40,116 nt of DNA, taken from a virus. The stretch is from IMG/VR virus record IMGVR_UViG_3300045988_114451, positions 1 through 40,116 of that record; one strand, 5' to 3'. The notes beneath the pieces are model-generated. The model was not told where the DNA came from. It did no database searches and worked only from the letters and a program-made list of their open reading frames with translations. The translations under genes were made by a program, and so were the position numbers. Below, piece by piece: positions 1,784-40,116 of the stretch (position 1 is the stretch's first letter; the number at the start of each line of letters is the position of its first letter).

Positions 1784-2519
1784 TTAAAAAAGTGAACATT
1801 GTGTGAATTGTTGTGGCTTGCCGAGCAGAAAATCGCAGATGAAATTCCGCGCATAATCGGGTGAAATCATTGAACGTTCCTCGGAGCATAATCCCGCGTG
1901 CGGTGCTTTCTTTGCGCTATATACCGATTTTATCTCCTTATCCCGCTGTTCCGTCTCAATCCCCATAACAGGCTCGCAGTTCACAAACCAATAGGCAGTG
2001 GGTTTCTTGTAGTAATCCCCGCGCATTGAGCGGTCTTTATCTATCAACGATGGTGACGAAGGGAAATTGCTATACAGATATTGAGGCTGCGACCAAGGAT
2101 TTTCAATGATTAGCCTAATGCCTTTTGTTAAGCAGATGCCATACATCTTTATCAAAAGCGAATAGAAAAATTGTCTATTCTCCGACCGCTCCAAGATAGC
2201 CGCAATTTTCTGCCTGTCGTCTAATTTCCGATAGTTAAAATGGGACAGAGAAAAAAGCATCATAGAATTTTGGCAAAAATAGATGCAAGGGAAAAACGCC
2301 ATTACAAGGTCTCCTTCTTGCCCCCCCCACTATGGTATCAAAGACAGACGGACGCCAATTATAGCCTTCCTCTATCTCGTGAAACAAATCCATCTTGTGG
2401 TCTGTCTCCCCGAAGTTATCCTGTATGTCATAATCCTCCGCAGGTATGCCCAACTTGATAAATTCGTTCTTGAATGTCCCTGACTGCTCGAAGAAGCAGT
2501 GTACTTTGCTTATTTTCAT
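1784..2519 (-). pseudogene. C5-cytosine-methyltransferase-like gene split into two ORFs (2519..2235 and 2302..1784) by a frameshift at a G8 tract.
   Basis: The N-terminal ORF has FFEQSGTFKNEF (motif-I-like). The C-terminal ORF has FFPCIYFCQ (PC motif-like) and LIIENP (ENV-like). Removing one G from the run at comp(2321..2328) fuses the frames as ...FDTIVGGQEGDLVMAFFPCIYFC... Confidence 0.5.
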
Positions 2520-2796: not shown

Positions 2797-3606
2797 TTAT
2801 TGAAATAAATTTGGTTGAATAACCGCCAATACCTTCTCTTTAGCCAGCTTATAAAAGTCCTTCTTAATCTCAAAGCCATACGCCTTGCGCCCACAATTCG
2901 CAGCCGCCAACAATGTCGTTCCGCTGCCCGCGCAAGGGTCTATCACGACATCGCCCTTGTCCGAAAACAACTCTATCAACCGCTCCAATAATTTCACAGG
3001 CTTCTGAGTGGGATGACATTTCGGCGTATCATTATCCACAACCCAATCCATACAGTTAAATACCATTCGTCCCTCGTTGTTGAATTTAGGGAGCATGTCC
3101 CGGTAGAGTATCAATCCATATTCGCAATTCCCCACGACCTTCATATTAGCCTTCAATACCTGCGCAGAGAAGTTCTTGCGGAAAACTAAAGGGATATATC
3201 TCTCAAGTCCATATCTGCGTCCCAAATCAATGTAATAGTGCATCTGCTCGAAAGGACAGAAGAGTATCATACAGGCTGCCCCCCCCTTGCGTTTGGAGCC
3301 TGCCATAGGCACATCGCCCTCTTCCCCCGTTTCGTCCTTTTTCAACGGCTTATCCTTACGAAGCATCTGTGAACAGAAGTGCATAAACTCCGCAGGACGG
3401 AAATCCTTGTCCGTGTCAAAGAATTGCTTTCCCGCCTTGTCGCTCTCACCTTTCTTGTTGTCGCCGTCTATGTACCACGCAGGATTGCTTGCATAAGCGT
3501 TTTCTCCGAGGTTATAGGGCACATCTGCTATGATAAGCTGTGCTTTCGGTATTCCGTAACTCTTGAAGTTCTGGAAATGGTCATTAAACAACTCTATATT
3601 TTTCAT
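2797..3606 (-). CDS. DNA N6-adenine or N4-cytosine methyltransferase, beta class (motif IV precedes motif I).
   Basis: IIADVPYNLG is a DPPY-type motif IV near the N-terminus. VIDPCAGSGTTLLAA is the FxGxG SAM motif near the C-terminus. The gene contains an in-frame G8 tract at comp(3279..3286). Confidence 0.85.
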   Translation of the reverse strand: MKNIELFNDHFQNFKSYGIPKAQLIIADVPYNLGENAYASNPAWYIDGDNKKGESDKAGKQFFDTDKDFRPAEFMHFCSQMLRKDKPLKKDETGEEGDVPMAGSKRKGGAACMILFCPFEQMHYYIDLGRRYGLERYIPLVFRKNFSAQVLKANMKVVGNCEYGLILYRDMLPKFNNEGRMVFNCMDWVVDNDTPKCHPTQKPVKLLERLIELFSDKGDVVIDPCAGSGTTLLAAANCGRKAYGFEIKKDFYKLAKEKVLAVIQPNLFQ

Positions 3607-4877: not shown

Positions 4878-4925
4878 CAAAGGTACAAACTTTTTTAATA
4901 TCTGCAAATTATTTTTCACTTTTTT
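4878..4925 (-). promoter_or_regulatory. Early promoter copy a (-33 TTTG, 19 nt, -7 TACCTTTG) with a conserved upstream GTGAAAAATAATTTGC block.
   Basis: The minus strand reads AAAAAAGTGAAAAATAATTTGCAGATATTAAAAAAGTTTGTACCTTTG. It lies about 45 nt upstream of tRNA-Met. Confidence 0.65.
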
Positions 4926-5223
4926 CGCCTTTTTTGAAAAAAAGCGGCTTCATATACCCCAAGATAGCCATATTCTTCTTGTCTTCAAGGGTCATCTTGT
5001 CCGCCTCTTCCTTGTAGAGCTGCCGCTTGATGAAGTGCGTCGTGTTGAACCTGAGCTTGTTCAGTTCTATTGCCTGTATATTCTGCCACACGCCGCCCTT
5101 TTTCCCCTCGCACAGGGAATTACTCTCTATGGGGATAAATACGCCCCTGACGCCCTCTTTATCCATCACCTCCGCGCCCTTGTATTGCAGCAGGTCTATG
5201 CTTATCGAAAAATCACTTCTCAT
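4909..5223 (-). CDS. Hypothetical protein, paralogue of 38093..38476 but lacking the acidic SSB-type tail.
   Basis: Aligned blocks are SISIDL / FIPIE / IQAIEL / THFIKRQL / ILGYMKP here versus SLKIDL / IIPVE / LAAIEL / THLVKRSL / ILGDLKP in the paralogue. Confidence 0.75.
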   Translation of the reverse strand: MRSDFSISIDLLQYKGAEVMDKEGVRGVFIPIESNSLCEGKKGGVWQNIQAIELNKLRFNTTHFIKRQLYKEEADKMTLEDKKNMAILGYMKPLFFKKGEKSEK

Positions 5224-5259: not shown

Positions 5260-6186
5260 TCAGAAAAGGGTGGGTTTCCAAATGTCATTCATCCATTTGC
5301 GGTGCACGAACAAACCCTCCGTAACATTCCCGTCCGCTCCGAACTGGTTTGCGAGCACATTCACGTCCCTTGCCCAGATGCGCACGAAATCATCGGGCAT
5401 CGAGTACTCGGATATGTATATCGGGAAGTCGGCATTCCGTGCCCACTCATGGAAGGCGTCGTGGTCAAATGTGCCCGTGCAGTAACCGTTTGCGGACTTG
5501 TATGGAGGGTCACAATATACTGTCGCGTCTTTGGTAATGGGTATCTCGCGGTAATCAGCCGCATACCTCTCCAAACTCTCCAACCTCTGCAAACTCTCCA
5601 AACCCTCCTTGCGTCCGCCCTTGAAGTGGCAAGATTTATACAGCGGATTGTTCATAATCATCTCCCTCGTTCCGTGCGCCTTCAGCCAAGACGTAATCGC
5701 ACGCCCTATCGCAACCCTCCGCTCGCTCCGGTCGTCAATGTCGCTCAAAACCCACCGACAGGCACCGCACACCTCCGGACAGAGTTCCCCAAGCGGCTCG
5801 AAATCATCGAACACGACGGCGTAATGCAGGGCACGCTTGTACGGCTCCATCTCACGCCCATAAAGATATGTCTTCGTGTCGTTCCCGAAACTCCAGCAGC
5901 AGCGCACATAAGCGTCAGTGTCCTTCAGCGCAACGAAGTCATCGCGGCTTATCCAGCGATTTTCGTTCCGATACTTCCCGCTAATTGCGTTGACGAACAG
6001 TTCGGGCATATCACCCTGAATGTCGTTAATGACATACCTGTCCCACCGCCCCGCGACCATTGCCGCGTGCGTCACGGCACAGCCGCCCGCGAAAAGGTCA
6101 TACAACGCGGCTCCCGAGGGAAGATGCTCCACTATGTCCGCGGCTATCCGTGACTTGCTGCCCCTGTATGGTAATCCGTACTTCAT
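5260..6186 (-). CDS. dam: DNA adenine methyltransferase, Dam-like (alpha class).
   Basis: YRGSKSRIA near the N-terminus, LYDLFAGGCAV (FxGxG), then VYCDPPYKS (DPPY). Confidence 0.85.
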   Translation of the reverse strand: MKYGLPYRGSKSRIAADIVEHLPSGAALYDLFAGGCAVTHAAMVAGRWDRYVINDIQGDMPELFVNAISGKYRNENRWISRDDFVALKDTDAYVRCCWSFGNDTKTYLYGREMEPYKRALHYAVVFDDFEPLGELCPEVCGACRWVLSDIDDRSERRVAIGRAITSWLKAHGTREMIMNNPLYKSCHFKGGRKEGLESLQRLESLERYAADYREIPITKDATVYCDPPYKSANGYCTGTFDHDAFHEWARNADFPIYISEYSMPDDFVRIWARDVNVLANQFGADGNVTEGLFVHRKWMNDIWKPTLF

Positions 6187-6548: not shown

Positions 6549-7250
6549 TTATCTATGCATTATTATATCGTACACCGCCTGAAGGTTGCGCCTTATAAGC
6601 ATATCAAGGCACAACGCCTTCGCCCGCGTGGTCTCGTCGAACGCCGCCCAGCCGTTCCACATGTCCGGTTTCGCGGGTTTCCTCGCGTCATCCAGCGCGT
6701 CAAGCATTATGTTCCGTTCCTCGGGTTTCGTGTCCGCGAGCCGCAGTCCCCTGTCACGCAGGAAGTCATATACACGCGCAAGATTGCAGGGTATGCCCTC
6801 GCAGTGCCCGCCACTGTTCACCTGCCCGTAATACCGCGACAACAATGTCCAGATGCTTTCCGCGTTCTTTTTCGCAATCGTGCCGTCGAAGTCAACGCGC
6901 ATATTCCGGTGCTCCCTGTCCCACTTCCGCTTTTCAGCCGCACGCTCGTCCGAGAGCAGGTATATCTGCAGCCACTTGAGCACATTCTTGACGGTTATGG
7001 AGAAATTGTCCCCATAACTGCCCTTTGTCCCCTCGTCCATCACATACTCCACCTCCTTAACAGTCAATGCCCCATACTTTGCATATAGGCTGTCACATAT
7101 CTTCATTATAGTGCGGTCATGTCCCTTGTCCTCGTCACCACCGTAGTTCGTGACGGCTTCTGACGCACATTTAGTCAGTGCGTCCGTCAACTTGTCTCGT
7201 GAGGTTGCTGCTATCGTCCGCGCATCCTCCAATGCCTCGCGTATCGTCAT
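6549..7250 (-). CDS. Hypothetical protein.
   Basis: A 233-aa ORF with ordinary composition, tightly packed with the next gene. Confidence 0.7.
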   Translation of the reverse strand: MTIREALEDARTIAATSRDKLTDALTKCASEAVTNYGGDEDKGHDRTIMKICDSLYAKYGALTVKEVEYVMDEGTKGSYGDNFSITVKNVLKWLQIYLLSDERAAEKRKWDREHRNMRVDFDGTIAKKNAESIWTLLSRYYGQVNSGGHCEGIPCNLARVYDFLRDRGLRLADTKPEERNIMLDALDDARKPAKPDMWNGWAAFDETTRAKALCLDMLIRRNLQAVYDIIMHR

Positions 7251-7689: not shown

Positions 7690-8676
7690 TTAAAATGGAA
7701 AATCGTTTTCTTCCTTGTATCTTTCATATTCGGCCTTCTTGCGTTCCTCCTCCGCAATCCGGAGCCGTTCCCTGCGCTCCCATTCGGCTTTCTTGCGCTC
7801 ATAATCCTCGTGTTCCCTCTGTCGCCTTTCCTCCGCCTCCTGACGCCCTTTCTCCGCGTTCCGCTGCCGTTCCGCCTCCTGTGCCTTCCATTCGCGGGTC
7901 TTGCGCTCATCCTCGCGTTTCTCATAGTCCTTCTTCTGCTCGTAATAGGACTTTTCCGCGTCGGGGTGAATGTCCTGCCAACCCCGCGAGACGGCTCTGT
8001 CGATGAACGCGCGTGCACGCTCTATGTCCCCGCCAGACTCGCGTTTCAGCCTGTTTGCGAAAATTGAGAGCGACTTCTGACATTTGAGGGGCTTCCTGAT
8101 GTCAATCTTGTAGTCGAGCCAGTATGCAATCAGCTCCCTCCAGTCATCCTCGGGTATGGTATTGACGAAGTCATCCGCTAATTTCTTGAAATCAGCCTTC
8201 GGCTTTTTGGGGGACTCCCCCTTTAGGGGGATTATAGGGGGTAATATGTTTTTATCTGTGTTTATTATCTGTTGTTTATTATCTGTATCATATAATAATA
8301 TACATTGTCCGTTTTGGGACAATGGACTGTCCTGTTCGGGACAATGTGTTGTCCCATTTGGTAAAATGCACCTTCCCATTAGGTCGTCATTGACGGAATA
8401 CCACAGAGTGCGGTCGCGCTTGTCCTCGTTGTAGTTTCCTGTCTGTACCGCCCCTTGCTCTATAAGACTTTGAAGGATTCGGTATATCTGTTTGTTTGAC
8501 CAATACGGGAATAGCCCTGAAAACGCCTTGCGGCTATTGTAAGTCCATACGCGCCCGTCATAGATATGCTTGTTGTTCTCGTAGTTTTTCTGAAGCCAGT
8601 AAAGAATATTGGTCAATATTATAGCCTCATTGCAGCCATATTTTTGAGCGAGTTCAATATCGAAAAAATGATACAT
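7690..8676 (-). CDS. Replication organiser/initiator-like protein. It has an N-terminal winged HTH (RepA_N/DnaD-like), a long K/E/R-rich helical tail, and a C-terminal ...ENDFPF.
   Basis: NEAIILTNILYWLQ...WTYNSRKAFSGLFPYWSNKQIYRILQSLIEQGAV fits the pattern. The MYHFFDIE start at 8676 is preferred because a hairpin plus U-run occupies 8681..8733. Confidence 0.55.
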   Translation of the reverse strand: MYHFFDIELAQKYGCNEAIILTNILYWLQKNYENNKHIYDGRVWTYNSRKAFSGLFPYWSNKQIYRILQSLIEQGAVQTGNYNEDKRDRTLWYSVNDDLMGRCILPNGTTHCPEQDSPLSQNGQCILLYDTDNKQQIINTDKNILPPIIPLKGESPKKPKADFKKLADDFVNTIPEDDWRELIAYWLDYKIDIRKPLKCQKSLSIFANRLKRESGGDIERARAFIDRAVSRGWQDIHPDAEKSYYEQKKDYEKREDERKTREWKAQEAERQRNAEKGRQEAEERRQREHEDYERKKAEWERRERLRIAEEERKKAEYERYKEENDFPF

Positions 8677-9135: not shown

Positions 9136-9570
9136 TTATACAAACTTGTCGTTCCGCGCAATCTCAACTTCAACCCAATCAAGGAACTCTCCCTCGTCAG
9201 GCTCCGGCAGCACGAACTCCGCAACACGTGCGCACCACTCCTTCCACCTGTCCAGCGACAGCGACATCTCCTCCTTCGTCAGTTCGGACGAACTGCGCGT
9301 GTATTCCACCAATCCGCACAGCCTGTCCTCCCTCCTCCGGACATACAGCTCCGCATTCGCGGCACGCTTGTAATACATCTCCTTCACATAATCCGCCTCC
9401 AGTCCGAACTCGGACGCGAAGTAGCCTATAGTGAGATGCAGCCACGCATTCTGCGCTCTGCTCCGCCCCCTGCGCTCCGTCAACTCCACAATCCCGCCGA
9501 CAGAGATGCACTTCGCCACCTTTCGCTCGAAACGCACCCTGTCAATGGGATTATGAAGGTCAAAAAGCAT
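9136..9570 (-). CDS. NinB/Orf-like recombination mediator.
   Basis: RSRAQNAWLHLTIGYFASEFG and SSSELTKEEMSLSLDRWKEW resemble the lambda Orf blocks RSLDQNRKLWACL and STSRMRVGEFAELLE. It sits in a recombination module. Confidence 0.45.
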   Translation of the reverse strand: MLFDLHNPIDRVRFERKVAKCISVGGIVELTERRGRSRAQNAWLHLTIGYFASEFGLEADYVKEMYYKRAANAELYVRRREDRLCGLVEYTRSSSELTKEEMSLSLDRWKEWCARVAEFVLPEPDEGEFLDWVEVEIARNDKFV

Positions 9571-10413: not shown

Positions 10414-11127
10414 TTACCTGTATTGATTAAGCACTTCTTTCTGTTCATCAGAGAGCATATAAGTCTGCTCCAGCTTGTAGATGAGGCTCTTTTCGCCCTT
10501 GTCCAGCCGCGCCATAGCCTTCTCGAAGGCGGCATCCGACAATGGTTTCTTTCCGTCCCCCGCCGTCGTCCGCGGCTGCGGCTTAGGCTTGCCGTCACCG
10601 AAACGGAAACGCTCGTTTCCATGCGCATCCACAATGACAAGACCGCTTATGTTCCGCCTGTCATCGTACTCGATGGACTTCACGCTGAAACCGCAATACG
10701 GGGACATCGCCGCCTTGCCCTGCGCATTCGTGTAATACTCCTTATCGTTCAGGGTAATCCAGATGCGCGGTGCGGAATACAGTTCACGCCCGATACCGAG
10801 ATTGAAGCAGGCTCGTTTGAACGAGTCGCTCGCCTGCCCCTTTTCCTTTTCCGTGTTGCTCTCCGTTCCCACATCCTGCTTGCTTATCCACTCACCCGTG
10901 TCGGGGTCTTTTACGGAGACGGTGCAGTAAAGACGGTCTCCGATGAGCTGGTGACTTCGCTGCCAGCAGAAGATACCGAAGGTCTCGTCCAGGATGTTCT
11001 GGTCAACCCTCGCGTCCTTGTAAAGCAGGATGCAGGCACTCACCGTGCCGTCCCGCCTTTGGGATACCTGTGCCGCGCGGCAATCAATGTCCTGCGGCTC
11101 CAAAAGTCTGAATTTGACTGTTTTCAT
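10414..11127 (-). CDS. Rad52/Sak-type single-strand annealing protein.
   Basis: KGQASDSFKRACFNLGIGRELY is the characteristic Rad52-family block. Confidence 0.7.
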   Translation of the reverse strand: MKTVKFRLLEPQDIDCRAAQVSQRRDGTVSACILLYKDARVDQNILDETFGIFCWQRSHQLIGDRLYCTVSVKDPDTGEWISKQDVGTESNTEKEKGQASDSFKRACFNLGIGRELYSAPRIWITLNDKEYYTNAQGKAAMSPYCGFSVKSIEYDDRRNISGLVIVDAHGNERFRFGDGKPKPQPRTTAGDGKKPLSDAAFEKAMARLDKGEKSLIYKLEQTYMLSDEQKEVLNQYR

Positions 11128-37145: not shown

Positions 37146-37236
37146 GTCCTCGATGCTCTGCCCGGCGTCGGTGGTTGAGTCGTCCGGGCGTTCCGATGTC
37201 CGGGACTCCCGGTCGGTGGTTGCGTCCGGGGCGGTG

Positions 37237-37436
37237 CGTGAATTTTTAGCCGCGCGGGATTGACGTGAATTTTTAGGCTCCGGCGATGCCTGTGAATTTT
37301 TGGAGCGAAACATGGTACGTGAATTTTTAGCGGGCGAGCCGCCGCGTGAATTTTTGGTCGGGGCGACGCGCCGTGAATTTTTTACAAAGTGTCCGCCGCG
37401 TGAATTTTCAGCCTGTACGGACGGACGTGAATTTTC
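37237..37436. repeat. Iteron array: eight copies of (C/T)GTGAATTTT(T) at exactly 27-bp spacing with non-conserved GC-rich spacers.
   Basis: Core starts at 37237, 37264, 37291, 37318, 37345, 37372, 37399 and 37426. A ninth copy is at 37782..37792. Confidence 0.9.
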
Positions 37437-37755
37437 AGAGCCTGCGCATCTCGTCCTCTATGCCCGAGCACCGCGCCCACATGTCGCGCAGCCTCCAGTC
37501 ATAGCGCAGGTTCTCCCTGAAGCGCACGACATCATAATACACGATGCTGTAACTCCTGCGGGAAAACCGCGCTATGTCCCCGAGATGCATGTTCAGGACG
37601 GTGAACGCGAGGTAATGGAAGCAGGCACGCGCGGAGACGAGCGGGGCGGTGCGCCTCCTCTCGAAGATGTCGTCATACCCGGACGCATCTCCGACAATAC
37701 GCGCCAGCGTTTCCATCCGATATGTATCCTGAACATCCATACCGCAAATATACAC
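37435..37755 (-). CDS. DnaA C-terminal (domain IV)-like HTH DNA-binding protein with no AAA+ domain.
   Basis: DIFERRRTAPLVSARACFHYLAFTVLNMHLGDIARFSRRSYSIVYYDVVRFRENL aligns by eye with E. coli DnaA [52 protein letters not shown]. The start codon is uncertain. Confidence 0.6.
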   Translation of the reverse strand: MYICGMDVQDTYRMETLARIVGDASGYDDIFERRRTAPLVSARACFHYLAFTVLNMHLGDIARFSRRSYSIVYYDVVRFRENLRYDWRLRDMWARCSGIEDEMRRL

Positions 37756-37794
37756 ATTTTCAAAAGGATATCGCGATTGTGCGTGAATTTTTCA

Positions 37795-37902: not shown

Positions 37903-38092
37903 AATCAACCCTCCCTTTTCCTTGCCTTTTGGCGTGCGTATGCAGCCGCACCGCCCTTTCCCCAACGTGCAGATACCTGCTCGAAGGTATCGTTGATGTA
38001 GCAGTGGTTTTCCGTCCATTTCACACTGTGCTGCAAGTCGGCGTTGCCCGATGTCCTCGCGAATTGTCCGTCAAAGTCCATGATGCCGTGAA

Positions 38093-38476
38093 TTAGAATG
38101 GTAAATCCTCGTCTGTCGCGCCGGATGCCTCGGCTGTCGCGGCTTGAATGCCGGGTGCGTCCACATCCACCTCCACCGCATCCACGGATGCCGCTCCGAA
38201 AGGCTTGAGGTCGCCCAGTATCGGCTGTGAGTTGCGCTCCGCCTCAGTCATCCTGTCGCGCTCGTCCTTGCGGAGTGAACGCTTGACGAGGTGCGTGCCG
38301 CCGAACTTGCCCGGCTGCCTGAGCTCGATTGCGGCGAGGTCAAGATATGCCGCGCCGCTCTGTGCGCAGAAGATGCCGTTCTTCTCCACGGGGATGATGA
38401 CGCAGTTCTCACCCCTTACGCTGCCGAGGAACGCTCCGTCGAGTTTCCTCAAATCAATCTTCAATGAATAATTCAT
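38093..38476 (-). CDS. Phage protein with an SSB-type acidic C-terminal tip (...TDEDLPF). Paralogue of 4909..5223.
   Basis: The C-terminus matches the bacterial SSB tip pattern D-D-D-I-P-F, and the N-terminal 90 aa aligns with the 104-aa paralogue. Confidence 0.7.
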   Translation of the reverse strand: MNYSLKIDLRKLDGAFLGSVRGENCVIIPVEKNGIFCAQSGAAYLDLAAIELRQPGKFGGTHLVKRSLRKDERDRMTEAERNSQPILGDLKPFGAASVDAVEVDVDAPGIQAATAEASGATDEDLPF

Positions 38477-38675: not shown

Positions 38676-38849
38676 TCACTTTCCACAAAATGCAATTCTG
38701 TAAGGCTTGTTTTTCAGCGTCGGACGCTGTTCCTCGACGAACTTCCGGAGGTCTTGTTCGTCAAGCGGGAACAGAGGGCAGTACTCGTATGTGAGCGTGC
38801 ACTGCCACCTGTCGCCGAGCATGACATCAAACTTAATCTTCTTCATCAT
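38676..38849 (-). CDS. 57-aa hypothetical protein (below the ORF-track length cutoff).
   Basis: Manual translation gives MMKKIKFDVMLGDRWQCTLTYEYCPLFPLDEQDLRKFVEEQRPTLKNKPYRIAFCGK. Its ATG overlaps the end of the SSB reading frame. Confidence 0.5.
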   Translation of the reverse strand: MMKKIKFDVMLGDRWQCTLTYEYCPLFPLDEQDLRKFVEEQRPTLKNKPYRIAFCGK

Positions 38850-39145
38850 TGATAATCTTTGTGACGATGATTTCGGGCATTATCTTTTCAGTGTTGTATT
38901 CATCAACATATTTTCGGTATTCAAGTCGTCCGATTATGTGAACCCACGCCCCTTTTTCTATCTTCGTCAGGTCAACTTCATCTGAAGAGTATGCGTGACA
39001 GTTATGCCACGATGTTTCTGCCGTGTGACATCCGCCGCTGTTGTAAACCTGTATCGTGCAGAGTTGAAATCTTGCGTATTCCGTACCCCCCGATGACTTT
39101 CTTTAATACCCTACCTATACGCCCTGCAAATTCTATTTGATTCAT
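38833..39145 (-). pseudogene. ssb: OB-fold single-stranded DNA-binding protein gene interrupted by a 1-nt frameshift at a G6 tract. Not in the ORF track.
   Basis: ATG at 39145. Dropping one G at comp(39086..39091) gives MNQIEFAGRIGRVLKKVIGGTEYARFQLCTIQVYNSGGCHTAETSWHNCHAYSSDEVDLTKIEKGAWVHIIGRLEYRKYVDEYNTEKIMPEIIVTKIINDEED, which fits the SSB pattern (GRLG..., W-H, KG..V.I.GRL, E.IV). Confidence 0.7.
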
Positions 39146-39180: not shown

Positions 39181-40116
39181 TTATTGCGGATTCTGTAAAA
39201 TTTCTACTAAAACTCCATTTACCAGCTTATACCAAGTATCTGCCTTGACCTGTTCTCCGTCCACTTTGAATGCCTTAATATCCTTTATGGGATAGCCCGC
39301 GCCATCCCATTTATCGCGCTCGGCAAGCACAATCCAAGTTCCCAATGCTCCGCGTGCTTTGCTATCATAACCCACACTCATTGCAATAGAGTGTTTGCCC
39401 GATGTTTCCGCTGCACCATTGTCGCCCGAATTGGATGCTGCACCATAATCGCCCGAATTGGATGCTGCACCATAATAGCCCGAATTGGATGCTGCACCAT
39501 AATAGCCCGAATTGGATGCTGCACCCTTATAGCCCGAATTGGATGCTGCACCCTTATAGCCCGAATTGGATGCTGCACCCTTGTCGCCCGAATTGGATGC
39601 TGCACCATAATCGCCCGAATTGGATGCTACACCATAATAGCCCGAATTGGATGCTGCACCATAATAGCCCGAATTGGATGCTACACCCCTATAGCCCGAA
39701 TTGGATGCTGCACCATAATCGCCCGAATTGGATGCTGCACCATAATCGCCCGAATTGGATGCTACACCCTTATAGCCCGAATTGGATGCTGCACCCTTAT
39801 AGCCCGAATTGGATGCTGCACCCTTATCGCCCGAATTGGATGCTGCACCATTGTCGCCCGAATTGGATGCTGCACCATAATCGCCCGAATTGGATGCTGC
39901 ACCATAATCGCCCGAATTGGATGCTGCACCCTTATAGCCCGAATTGGATGCTGCACCATAATTGCCCGAATTGGATGCTGCACCCTTATTGCCCGAATTG
40001 GATGCTGCACCATTGTCGCCCGAATTGGATGCTGCACCATTGTCGCCCGAATTGGATGCTACACCATAATAGCCCGAATTGGATGCTGCACCCTTATAGC
40101 CCGAATTGGATGCTGC
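39181..40116 (-). CDS. C-terminal part of the repeat protein begun at 470..1: about 27 nine-residue repeats plus a roughly 70-aa C-terminal domain.
   Basis: The frame of the listed 66-aa ORF (39181..39381) stays open upstream through ...NGAAETSGKHSIAMSVGYDS and reads GAASNSG[YDN][KYNR] across the whole array to the window edge. Confidence 0.8.
   Translation of the reverse strand, partial: AASNSGYKGAASNSGYYGVASNSGDNGAASNSGDNGAASNSGNKGAASNSGNYGAASNSGYKGAASNSGDYGAASNSGDYGAASNSGDNGAASNSGDKGAASNSGYKGAASNSGYKGVASNSGDYGAASNSGDYGAASNSGYRGVASNSGYYGAASNSGYYGVASNSGDYGAASNSGDKGAASNSGYKGAASNSGYKGAASNSGYYGAASNSGYYGAASNSGDYGAASNSGDNGAAETSGKHSIAMSVGYDSKARGALGTWIVLAERDKWDGAGYPIKDIKAFKVDGEQVKADTWYKLVNGVLVEILQNPQ
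39398..40116 (-). repeat. 27-nt coding tandem repeat array (about 26.6 units).
   Basis: An invariant 20-nt core cccgaattggatgctgcacc (a few units have gctacacc) alternates with a 7-nt variable segment: cttatag, cttattg, ataatcg, ataatag, attgtcg, cttgtcg, cctatag, cttatcg or ataattg. Confidence 0.95.

Follow-up and report, generated by a model that had tools for sequence, protein, structure and literature searches.

The tip at the C-terminus of SSB, the protein that binds single-stranded DNA, is the chief docking handle in bacterial genome maintenance, and it sets which phage recombinases work in which host. The role of the tip as a handle is well known, as are phage SSBs that bear it. For example, the last six residues of the HK620 SSB are required to stimulate the neighboring annealing protein (PMC5928155). 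The SSB C-tail is bound by Redbeta and by YbcN, an Orf homologue that needs this tail, and Orf-family proteins bind SSB (PMC6393309). Both the function and the portability of single-strand annealing proteins depend on the C-terminal seven residues of the host SSB (PMC13490951). The subject here is a stretch of viral DNA, positions 1 to 40,116 of IMG/VR record IMGVR_UViG_3300045988_114451 (the whole 40,116-nucleotide stretch is called the window), in which two unrelated proteins end in a tip of this kind. One is a 127-amino-acid (aa) protein encoded on the minus strand at 38093..38476, and the other is a 328-aa replication initiator of the DnaD-like loader type, encoded on the same strand at 7690..8676. 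With a probability of roughly 60%, the 127-aa protein is a phage analogue of SSB built on a different core, and the initiator carries the same plug.

What is new is a large unannotated family in which the complete tail of an SSB follows a core without detectable relationship to the oligonucleotide/oligosaccharide-binding (OB) fold, together with comparative evidence that the family substitutes for SSB. Also new is a replication initiator with the same tip on what its composition suggests is a long charged helix. Text searches of the literature found no described initiator that ends in an SSB tip and no description of the 127-aa family.

Layout and conservation of the tailed protein

The 127-aa open reading frame (ORF) ends ATDEDLPF and the initiator ends KEENDFPF; both ends had been reported in a preliminary description of the window and were read again in the ORFs. 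Both fit the SSB C-terminus, in which a terminal Phe with a free carboxylate is preceded by Pro, a hydrophobic residue, and two to four acidic residues. The 127-aa protein shows the full layout of an SSB, that is, a basic core, a disordered linker, and a tip. The folded core comprises residues 1-95 (38192..38476, minus strand) and has an isoelectric point (pI) of 9.1. The acidic linker comprises residues 96-121 (38114..38191), and the SSB-type tip D-E-D-L-P-F comprises residues 122-127 (38096..38113), with the stop codon at 38093-38095. In the AlphaFold2 prediction, made with an alignment of 144 sequences, the predicted local distance difference test (pLDDT) score is 93-97 over residues 1-90 of the core (~96 overall), and the tail is disordered, with linker values of 53-70. 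The family as a whole is built in the same way. The median core pI is 8.8, and the tail has a pI of ~4.05, a median length of 26 aa, and a composition rich in Ala, Ser, Gln, Pro, Thr, and Asn. The core residues H62, K65, G88, and P29 are near-invariant across the family.

The protein belongs to PHROG 36980, a family of unknown function whose profile (phrog_36980) matches it over its full length (E 4.5e-21; residues 2-127 against profile positions 3-124 of 124). When 1.84 billion representatives were searched by profile, 807 relatives emerged, counted as clusters at 50% identity, and 144 diverse relatives were aligned and used for the AlphaFold2 prediction, the sequence logo, and the Pfam scan. 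No Pfam or NCBIfam model matches the 127-aa protein or its 144 aligned relatives. A search of PDB sequences with the protein and the 144-member alignment gave no match. In Foldseek searches against the PDB, the best match of the core reached only E 2.2, and neither of two models gave a match below E 1. Of the searches that the preliminary description proposed for the family of this protein and a 104-aa paralogue, those by profile led both proteins to PHROG 36980, and those by structure, with the 127-aa protein, gave no PDB fold match. Foldseek against BFVD with the 127-aa model found uncharacterized phage proteins only; one match, of 175 residues, equals in length the family member of a Marinomonas phage and may be that protein. 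Alignment of the family with an OB-SSB alignment by hhalign gave a probability of 0.6%, and the SSB hidden Markov model (HMM) matches no family member. The core is not recognizably an OB fold.

Two other identities for the core were tried and rejected. An internal duplication of the cradle-loop or AbrB-like kind, an idea that had come from noise-level Foldseek matches to VapB and MazE, gave only a trivial overlap when the halves were compared by hhalign. Identity with DUF3127 (PF11325) failed since none of the 144 family members matches at E < 0.1. One 210-aa member of the family, P0190, consists of two tandem cores and has no tip, and in this it resembles the SSBs that have two OB folds per chain. 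The tandem hints that the core may act as a dimer or a higher oligomer.

The tip is the part of the tail that is kept. All full-length close homologues of the 127-aa protein retain [DE][DE]D[LM]PF, but the stretch before it (residues 96-120) differs among them in both sequence and length. Among the 144 diverse relatives, 115 close with a hydrophobic residue and then P-F/W, after a low-complexity linker that cannot be aligned. In these tip-bearing relatives, the Pro is present in 115 of 115 and the Phe in 113 of 115, and the logo reads [ED][DN][DE]-D-D-L-P-F. Hundreds of clusters at 30-45% identity keep the tip, and the linker next to it cannot be aligned among them. The conservation of the terminal P-F, which the preliminary description had named as a check, holds in the homologues of both proteins, and the flanking sequence is free to vary.

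The pattern is also rare outside SSBs and this family. Within the ORFs of the window, an acidic-[LF]-P-F end occurs among real genes only in the 127-aa gene and the initiator. A broader count took in ~100 related loci, with 5,676 ORFs that are 60 aa or longer. The pattern stands at the C-terminus of 83 of them, and 74 of the 83 are SSBs or members of the 127-aa family. The remaining nine comprise four copies of the C-terminal module of the initiator, two other tip bearers downstream of erf, and three that look spurious. Of these two lines of evidence, conservation carries more weight. Both tips are under selection.

Genomic slot, exchange with canonical SSB, and host type

In the loci examined, family members always lie within replication or recombination modules. 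As an example, the gene order in locus L007 is Erf, a RecE-like exonuclease, the family member, NinB/Orf, a Holliday-junction resolvase, and an initiator. In other loci, the member stands beside a dUTPase, small proteins that resemble DnaA domain IV, DUF1064, RecT, or a phage beta clamp; it is six genes downstream of RecT in L012, and the beta clamp is two genes away from it in L010. A short-form branch of the family, which scores 17-25 bits with the family HMM over the last two thirds of the core, on its C-terminal side, is found in the same surroundings; SSB controls with an OB fold have no score. The short-form member directly follows erf in Vibrio phages and adjoins ERF and a 5'-3' exonuclease in Flavobacterium phages. 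In Pseudoalteromonas phage H6/1, the member is near a Rad52-like gene, RusA, and NinB. Between the beta clamp and the member of L010 lies a 154-aa Bac_DnaA_C-like protein (2035..2499 of that locus) that ends ...SDKMPF, and it may be a further carrier of the tip, as a single case.

The clearest view of the slot comes from two Vibrio phages, 1.266.O and 1.176.O. Their Erf proteins are 96.7% identical, and the flanking DNA is 85-97% identical. Homology at the DNA level is interrupted where erf ends and returns past the next gene. In 1.266.O that gene encodes a family member of 106 aa that ends ...PEDDFGDTEIPF, and in 1.176.O it encodes a Pfam-SSB protein of 150 aa in which ...PEDDFGDMDEIPF is followed by 14 more residues. 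The tails of the two proteins are 74% identical over 27 residues. The two phages therefore differ by a clean gene-for-gene replacement in which the tail is homologous. In the 1.176.O locus (L018, 2674..3126), the annotated SSB runs 14 residues beyond ...DEIPF (IDPYHRNNKLTHCM). Should this annotation be correct, that SSB has its tip at an internal position, and the extension may be a scar of cassette exchange.

The family and canonical SSB also avoid each other on a wider scale. Outside the lineage of the window, none of the 15 loci that hold a member has a canonical SSB by HMM, and these include the whole 34.8-kb genome of phage 1.266.O. In 80 viral loci fetched through an Erf homologue, a tipped canonical SSB lies downstream on the same strand in 56, a family member in one, and both in none. 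In two loci, the slot downstream of erf holds tip bearers of yet other kinds, with Gln-, Pro-, and Ala-rich linkers: L032 7624..8109 (...NDGLPF) and L034 7570..8130 (...EKDLPF). The L032 protein is DUF3127-like (E 1.2e-5, which narrowly misses the cut-off), and that of L034 is unassigned. With these two proteins, the tail found in the slot after erf is shared by no fewer than three or four different cores.

The type of tip is seen to follow the phylum of the host, with the SSB tips of the hosts taken from published papers and general knowledge. In phages of Bacteroidota, the ends are HDDLPFN (Flavobacterium), DDDGLPF (Polaribacter), and SDDLPF (Tenacibaculum), and in phages of Gammaproteobacteria they are DTEIPF (Vibrio), FDDFDDVPF (Marinomonas), and FDDELPPF (Pseudoalteromonas). 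The former have LPF, one of them with a terminal Asn; the latter have IPF, VPF, or PPF, two of the three with FDD upstream. In agreement with this, the SSBs of Bacteroidota generally end in LPF. Those of proteobacteria have IPF-type tips (PMC13490951; PMC5872125), and an LPF-type tip is found in SsbA of the Firmicute Streptococcus mutans (PMC5143411). The host of the window's phage is probably a gut member of the Bacteroidales. The clues to it are a contig of a Sangeribacter (Muribaculaceae) metagenome-assembled genome that holds a 40%-identical family member and the GC content of the window, which is 51%. A megablast search with 22 kb of the window found no match among cultured phages, and single distant members used as queries against viral contigs and phage records mostly gave no useful match.

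The window also encodes an OB-fold SSB of its own, on the minus strand at 38833..39145. The preliminary description took this to be a canonical SSB without a tip. The lack of a tip and the NDEED end are borne out, but the gene is frameshifted by a 1-nt insertion, and its 313 nt hold no intact ORF in the window. The run of C at 39086-39091 (plus strand) has six C in the window versus five in three close relatives (L013-15). The frameshift may be a genuine null allele, or it arose as an error of sequencing or assembly. Once repaired, the 103-aa product matches the Pfam SSB family (PF00436) at 2.6e-11, and intact tip-less OB versions of 103-106 aa are present in L002-4 and L013-15. In L003, a second short tip-less OB protein of 91 aa (6568..6843; SSB HMM 4e-29) lies 530 bp downstream of the first.

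The 127-aa protein has a relative within the window as well. The 104-aa ORF at 4909..5223 (minus strand) had been called a tail-less paralogue, and so it proved: BLASTP gives 36% identity to the 127-aa protein (E 2e-19), phrog_36980 matches at E 2.8e-14, and the protein ends just past the core. It is kept in relatives (L013 3452..3766, and P0064). The early region of the window holds three methyltransferase genes on the minus strand (1784..2302, 2797..3606, and 5260..6186; phrog_757, phrog_67, and phrog_56), and the paralogue lies directly downstream of the third of them, in the window and in L013.

The tipped initiator and the early region

The initiator is identified by phrog_11233 (E 2e-33), phrog_6493 (7e-22), and phrog_428 (9e-16). 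Its longest ORF opens at TTG 8733 and would give 347 aa. The start at ATG 8676 used in the preliminary description is upheld, as the homologues begin MYHFFD there. The three matches cover residues 22-156 of the 347-aa ORF, or ~3-137 in the 328-aa numbering, and phrog_18589 matches residues 174-285, or ~155-266. The protein can be divided into an N-terminal domain of the winged-helix, origin-binding type, to which the PHROG matches fall (residues 1-136; 8269..8676), a central domain (137-239; 7960..8268), a segment of ~83 residues rich in Glu, Arg, and Lys (E/R/K; 240-322; 7711..7959), and the tip N-D-F-P-F (7693..7707), all on the minus strand, with the stop codon at 7690-7692. Over stretches of 20 residues, the E/R/K segment is 55-70% Glu, Arg, and Lys. 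The Pfam DnaD/DnaB_2 model (PF07261) has no match in the window's initiator, and a distant homologue, P0057, carries it.

The initiator tip is as constant as that of the 127-aa protein. Wherever the C-terminal module is present, in 26 homologues, the protein ends in [LF]PF, despite differing residues upstream (ADGLPF in P0039 and TDELPF in P0046), and 11 more distant relatives that lack the module also lack the tip. The N-terminal domain is swapped in some homologues, while the central domain is always linked to the E/R/K segment and the tip. For example, P0043 is 91% identical to the initiator over residues 137-328 (192 residues) and has an unrelated N-terminus. The tip thus stays with the C-terminal half through exchanges of the N-terminal domain. 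Such a pattern would follow from a division of labor in which the origin is read by the N-terminus and other proteins are recruited by the C-terminal half.

The early-region proteins that were scanned include a dUTPase, methyltransferases, the initiator, NinB, a Gam-like/Gp157 protein, Erf, and an HNH endonuclease. The scan turned up no helicase, primase, or polymerase, so host replication proteins would have to be captured. The Erf-type single-strand annealing protein is encoded at 10414..11127 (minus strand; phrog_14970, 3e-78; phrog_1097, Erf-like; Pfam Rad52_Rad22), and the NinB/Orf-type recombination mediator is encoded at 9136..9570 (minus strand; phrog_72, E 7.7e-12).

The surroundings of the 127-aa gene contain two sets of repeats. 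Eight copies of CGTGAATTTT(T) lie at 37236-37438, just downstream of the gene, with a spacing of 27 or 54 bp (multiples of 27). Further copies are at 37776-37792 and 38084-38094, and there are none elsewhere in the window. The array is present with the same phasing in relatives (L002-4, L013-15, and L104), and it is a candidate iteron array, as part of either an origin or an operator. Abutting the array is a conserved 106-aa ORF (37435..37755, minus strand) with a resemblance to domain IV of DnaA, seen as a match to Pfam Bac_DnaA_C at E 8e-5 that does not reach the curated cut-off; similar small genes adjoin the family members of L010 and L012. The other repeat is a 27-bp tandem unit, GCTGCACCATTATAGCCCGAATTGGAT, with 26 copies at the end of the window (39410-40116) and five at its start (3-146), so that it runs across the ends of the window. 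Read as protein, it gives repetitive ORFs (MVQHPIRA...), and it is absent from the loci of relatives, where the gap between the dUTPase and SSB genes is only ~95 bp.

Competing explanations and known systems

The preliminary description proposed that the phage places mimics of the SSB tip on scaffolds unrelated to SSB. This fits the initiator better than the 127-aa protein, which has the full layout of an SSB and the position of one. If the latter is an SSB analogue, its basic core of ~95 residues would bind DNA, most likely single-stranded, and its tip would plug into the pockets that receive the C-terminus of the host SSB. In this way, the tail could tether host genome-maintenance enzymes as well as the phage's own Erf and NinB/Orf. 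Erf is a candidate phage-encoded client of the tip, and NinB/Orf is a second candidate. The tip of the initiator could bring a host replication factor that binds SSB, such as PriA, primase, or a clamp-loader subunit, to the origin. A role in recruiting host factors is suggested for it because no helicase, primase, or polymerase is found among the scanned early proteins.

Several points weigh against the SSB analogue. The binding of DNA by the core, its oligomeric state, and every binding partner are inferred. The core itself may be a very divergent small beta-barrel or OB-like fold, since such barrels can escape Foldseek; the order of its strands and helices is OB-like, and its noise-level Foldseek matches include RuvA domain I. 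The short-form branch, which is the source of both the exchange with SSB and the tips with known hosts, is only remotely related to the window's protein (tblastn E 6e-4), and the tracking of the host tip was seen in a sample of six host genera. In the phage of the window, the 127-aa gene is not adjacent to erf. In all seven loci examined from the lineage of the window (L002-4, L013-15, and the window), a single early operon encodes both the tailed protein and the tip-less OB SSB, so in this lineage the two are not simple alternatives. As for the initiator, its E/R/K segment is probably a single long charged helix, judging by its composition.

One could consider instead that the 127-aa protein is a decoy, in line with the competition that the preliminary description allowed for. 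Without binding DNA, it would flood the cell with tips and titrate the nucleases, helicases, and restart factors that bind the host SSB, so that phage DNA would be protected or host repair shut down. A conserved tip of the host type, exposed on a disordered tail, would suit such a role, and the OB-fold SSB of the lineage makes a second DNA binder not obviously needed. There is also a precedent in a phage SSB-like protein ending in FDDDIPF that is proposed to interfere with the host SbcB (bioRxiv 10.64898/2026.04.29.721553). However, a decoy needs no conserved basic core with near-invariant residues, and it leaves unexplained why the gene sits in a position interchangeable with that of SSB and why, in other phages, the family and canonical SSB exclude each other. 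An SSB analogue is more likely than a decoy because of the SSB layout, the SSB slot, the lack of co-occurrence outside the lineage, and the Vibrio exchange with its homologous tails. The decoy is thus an unlikely explanation on its own account. Of course, recruitment and competition can coexist.

The presence of both proteins in all seven loci examined from the window lineage could also mean that SSB is split between them: as an adaptor subunit, the 127-aa protein would bind the OB SSB that has no tip and add the linker and tip in trans. This would not be the general role of the family, since 15 loci of other lineages have a member and no detectable OB SSB, and in the window the OB gene is frameshifted. 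A split SSB is accordingly considered quite improbable.

A third possibility is that the terminal L-P-F acts as a degron and gives both proteins a short lifetime. In S. mutans SsbA, the final three residues, LPF, suffice for degradation by ClpXP (PMC5143411). Recognition is nonetheless reported there to be strain dependent and absent in other bacteria. A degron also fails to explain the conserved acidic residues at positions -4 to -6, the tracking of the host, and a tail held in common with canonical SSB, which makes it very hard to sustain.

The tip could in principle dock on the sliding clamp and not on the partners of SSB. Clamp-binding motifs are short, hydrophobic, and often C-terminal, with the consensus Q-L-[SD]-L-F, which is hydrophobic at positions 2, 4, and 5, and L010 does encode a phage beta clamp two genes from its member. 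Measured against this consensus, which comes from general knowledge, the tip has no Gln, is acidic where the consensus is hydrophobic, and has Pro at -2 in 115 of 115 relatives, so that docking on the clamp is barely credible. Chance resemblance without function, which a motif of just four to six residues might suggest, is rejected because the tip is conserved across hundreds of clusters and the linker is not, and only three of ~5,600 unrelated ORFs end in the pattern.

A wider reading can be offered tentatively. The family may be a widespread class of phage proteins, overlooked until now, that bind single-stranded DNA without an OB fold and can take the place of canonical SSB one gene for another, and the tail may be a portable module that, on the initiator, recruits a client of the host SSB without any SSB-coated DNA. 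On the same tentative reading, the tail would have moved between unrelated DNA-binding cores and, in the lineage of the window, onto the rigid charged helix of the initiator. If the SSB analogue is real, the family would add a new type of SSB-like hub and would explain why many phage genomes seem to have no SSB. It would also offer new recombineering parts for Bacteroidota and other hosts that are hard to engineer. The tip-bearing initiator suggests a simple way for a phage that has no replisome genes to capture host factors at its origin.

The logic of the module is already seen in known systems. The HK620 pair of SSB and Sak4, and Redbeta or Orf/YbcN acting with the E. coli SSB, resemble the combination of Erf, NinB, and a tip bearer found here, but in these systems the tip is on an OB-fold SSB. 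Bas52_0087, an SSB-like trigger of DRT10, is likewise a phage protein with a host-type tip (FDDDIPF) and a proposed SbcB interface, as the window's proteins are phage proteins with tips of the host type; it has two predicted OB folds, whereas none is detectable in the 127-aa protein. DUF3127 (PF11325) proteins also supply a small tip bearer in the slot after erf (L032), and the 127-aa family shows no match to DUF3127. B. subtilis SsbB and E. coli PriB are tail-less paralogues of SSB. The 104-aa protein and the 103-aa OB protein are likewise core-only copies beside a tailed one, although the 104-aa paralogue appears to belong to a different fold family from SsbB and PriB.

For the initiator, the lambda O-type and DnaD-like initiators are the nearest relatives in design, as their N-terminal DNA-binding domain is swapped and their C-terminal recruitment half is kept. 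In the text searches and to our knowledge, no described initiator of this kind ends in an SSB tip borne on a long E/R/K helix. The nearest precedent for the pairing of an SSB-like protein with an initiator is found in phage T7, where two replication proteins, the SSB gp2.5 and the helicase-primase gp4, share one type of plug. Both gp2.5 and gp4 have an acidic tail with Phe as its last residue. One structure of the T7 polymerase contains a bound DTDF peptide, a mimic of the gp4 tail, and the gp2.5 tail has been modeled onto it (PMC12339929). T7 differs in that the receptor is its own polymerase and the tail is D-x-D-F without Pro, whereas here the tip is of the host SSB type. The second carrier in T7 is the helicase-primase, while in the window's phage, with no polymerase, helicase, or primase among the scanned early proteins, it is the initiator.

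The closest comparison of all is with the bacterial and phage SSBs (PF00436), which consist of an OB core, a disordered linker, and D-D-D-[IL]-P-F. The core of the 127-aa protein has no sequence, profile, or Foldseek similarity to theirs. The layout is nevertheless the same, with an acidic tail on a basic core and the tip at its very end. The SSB gene adjoins those of annealing proteins, as do the genes of the family, and in the Vibrio phages the tail of the family member is homologous to that of a true SSB.

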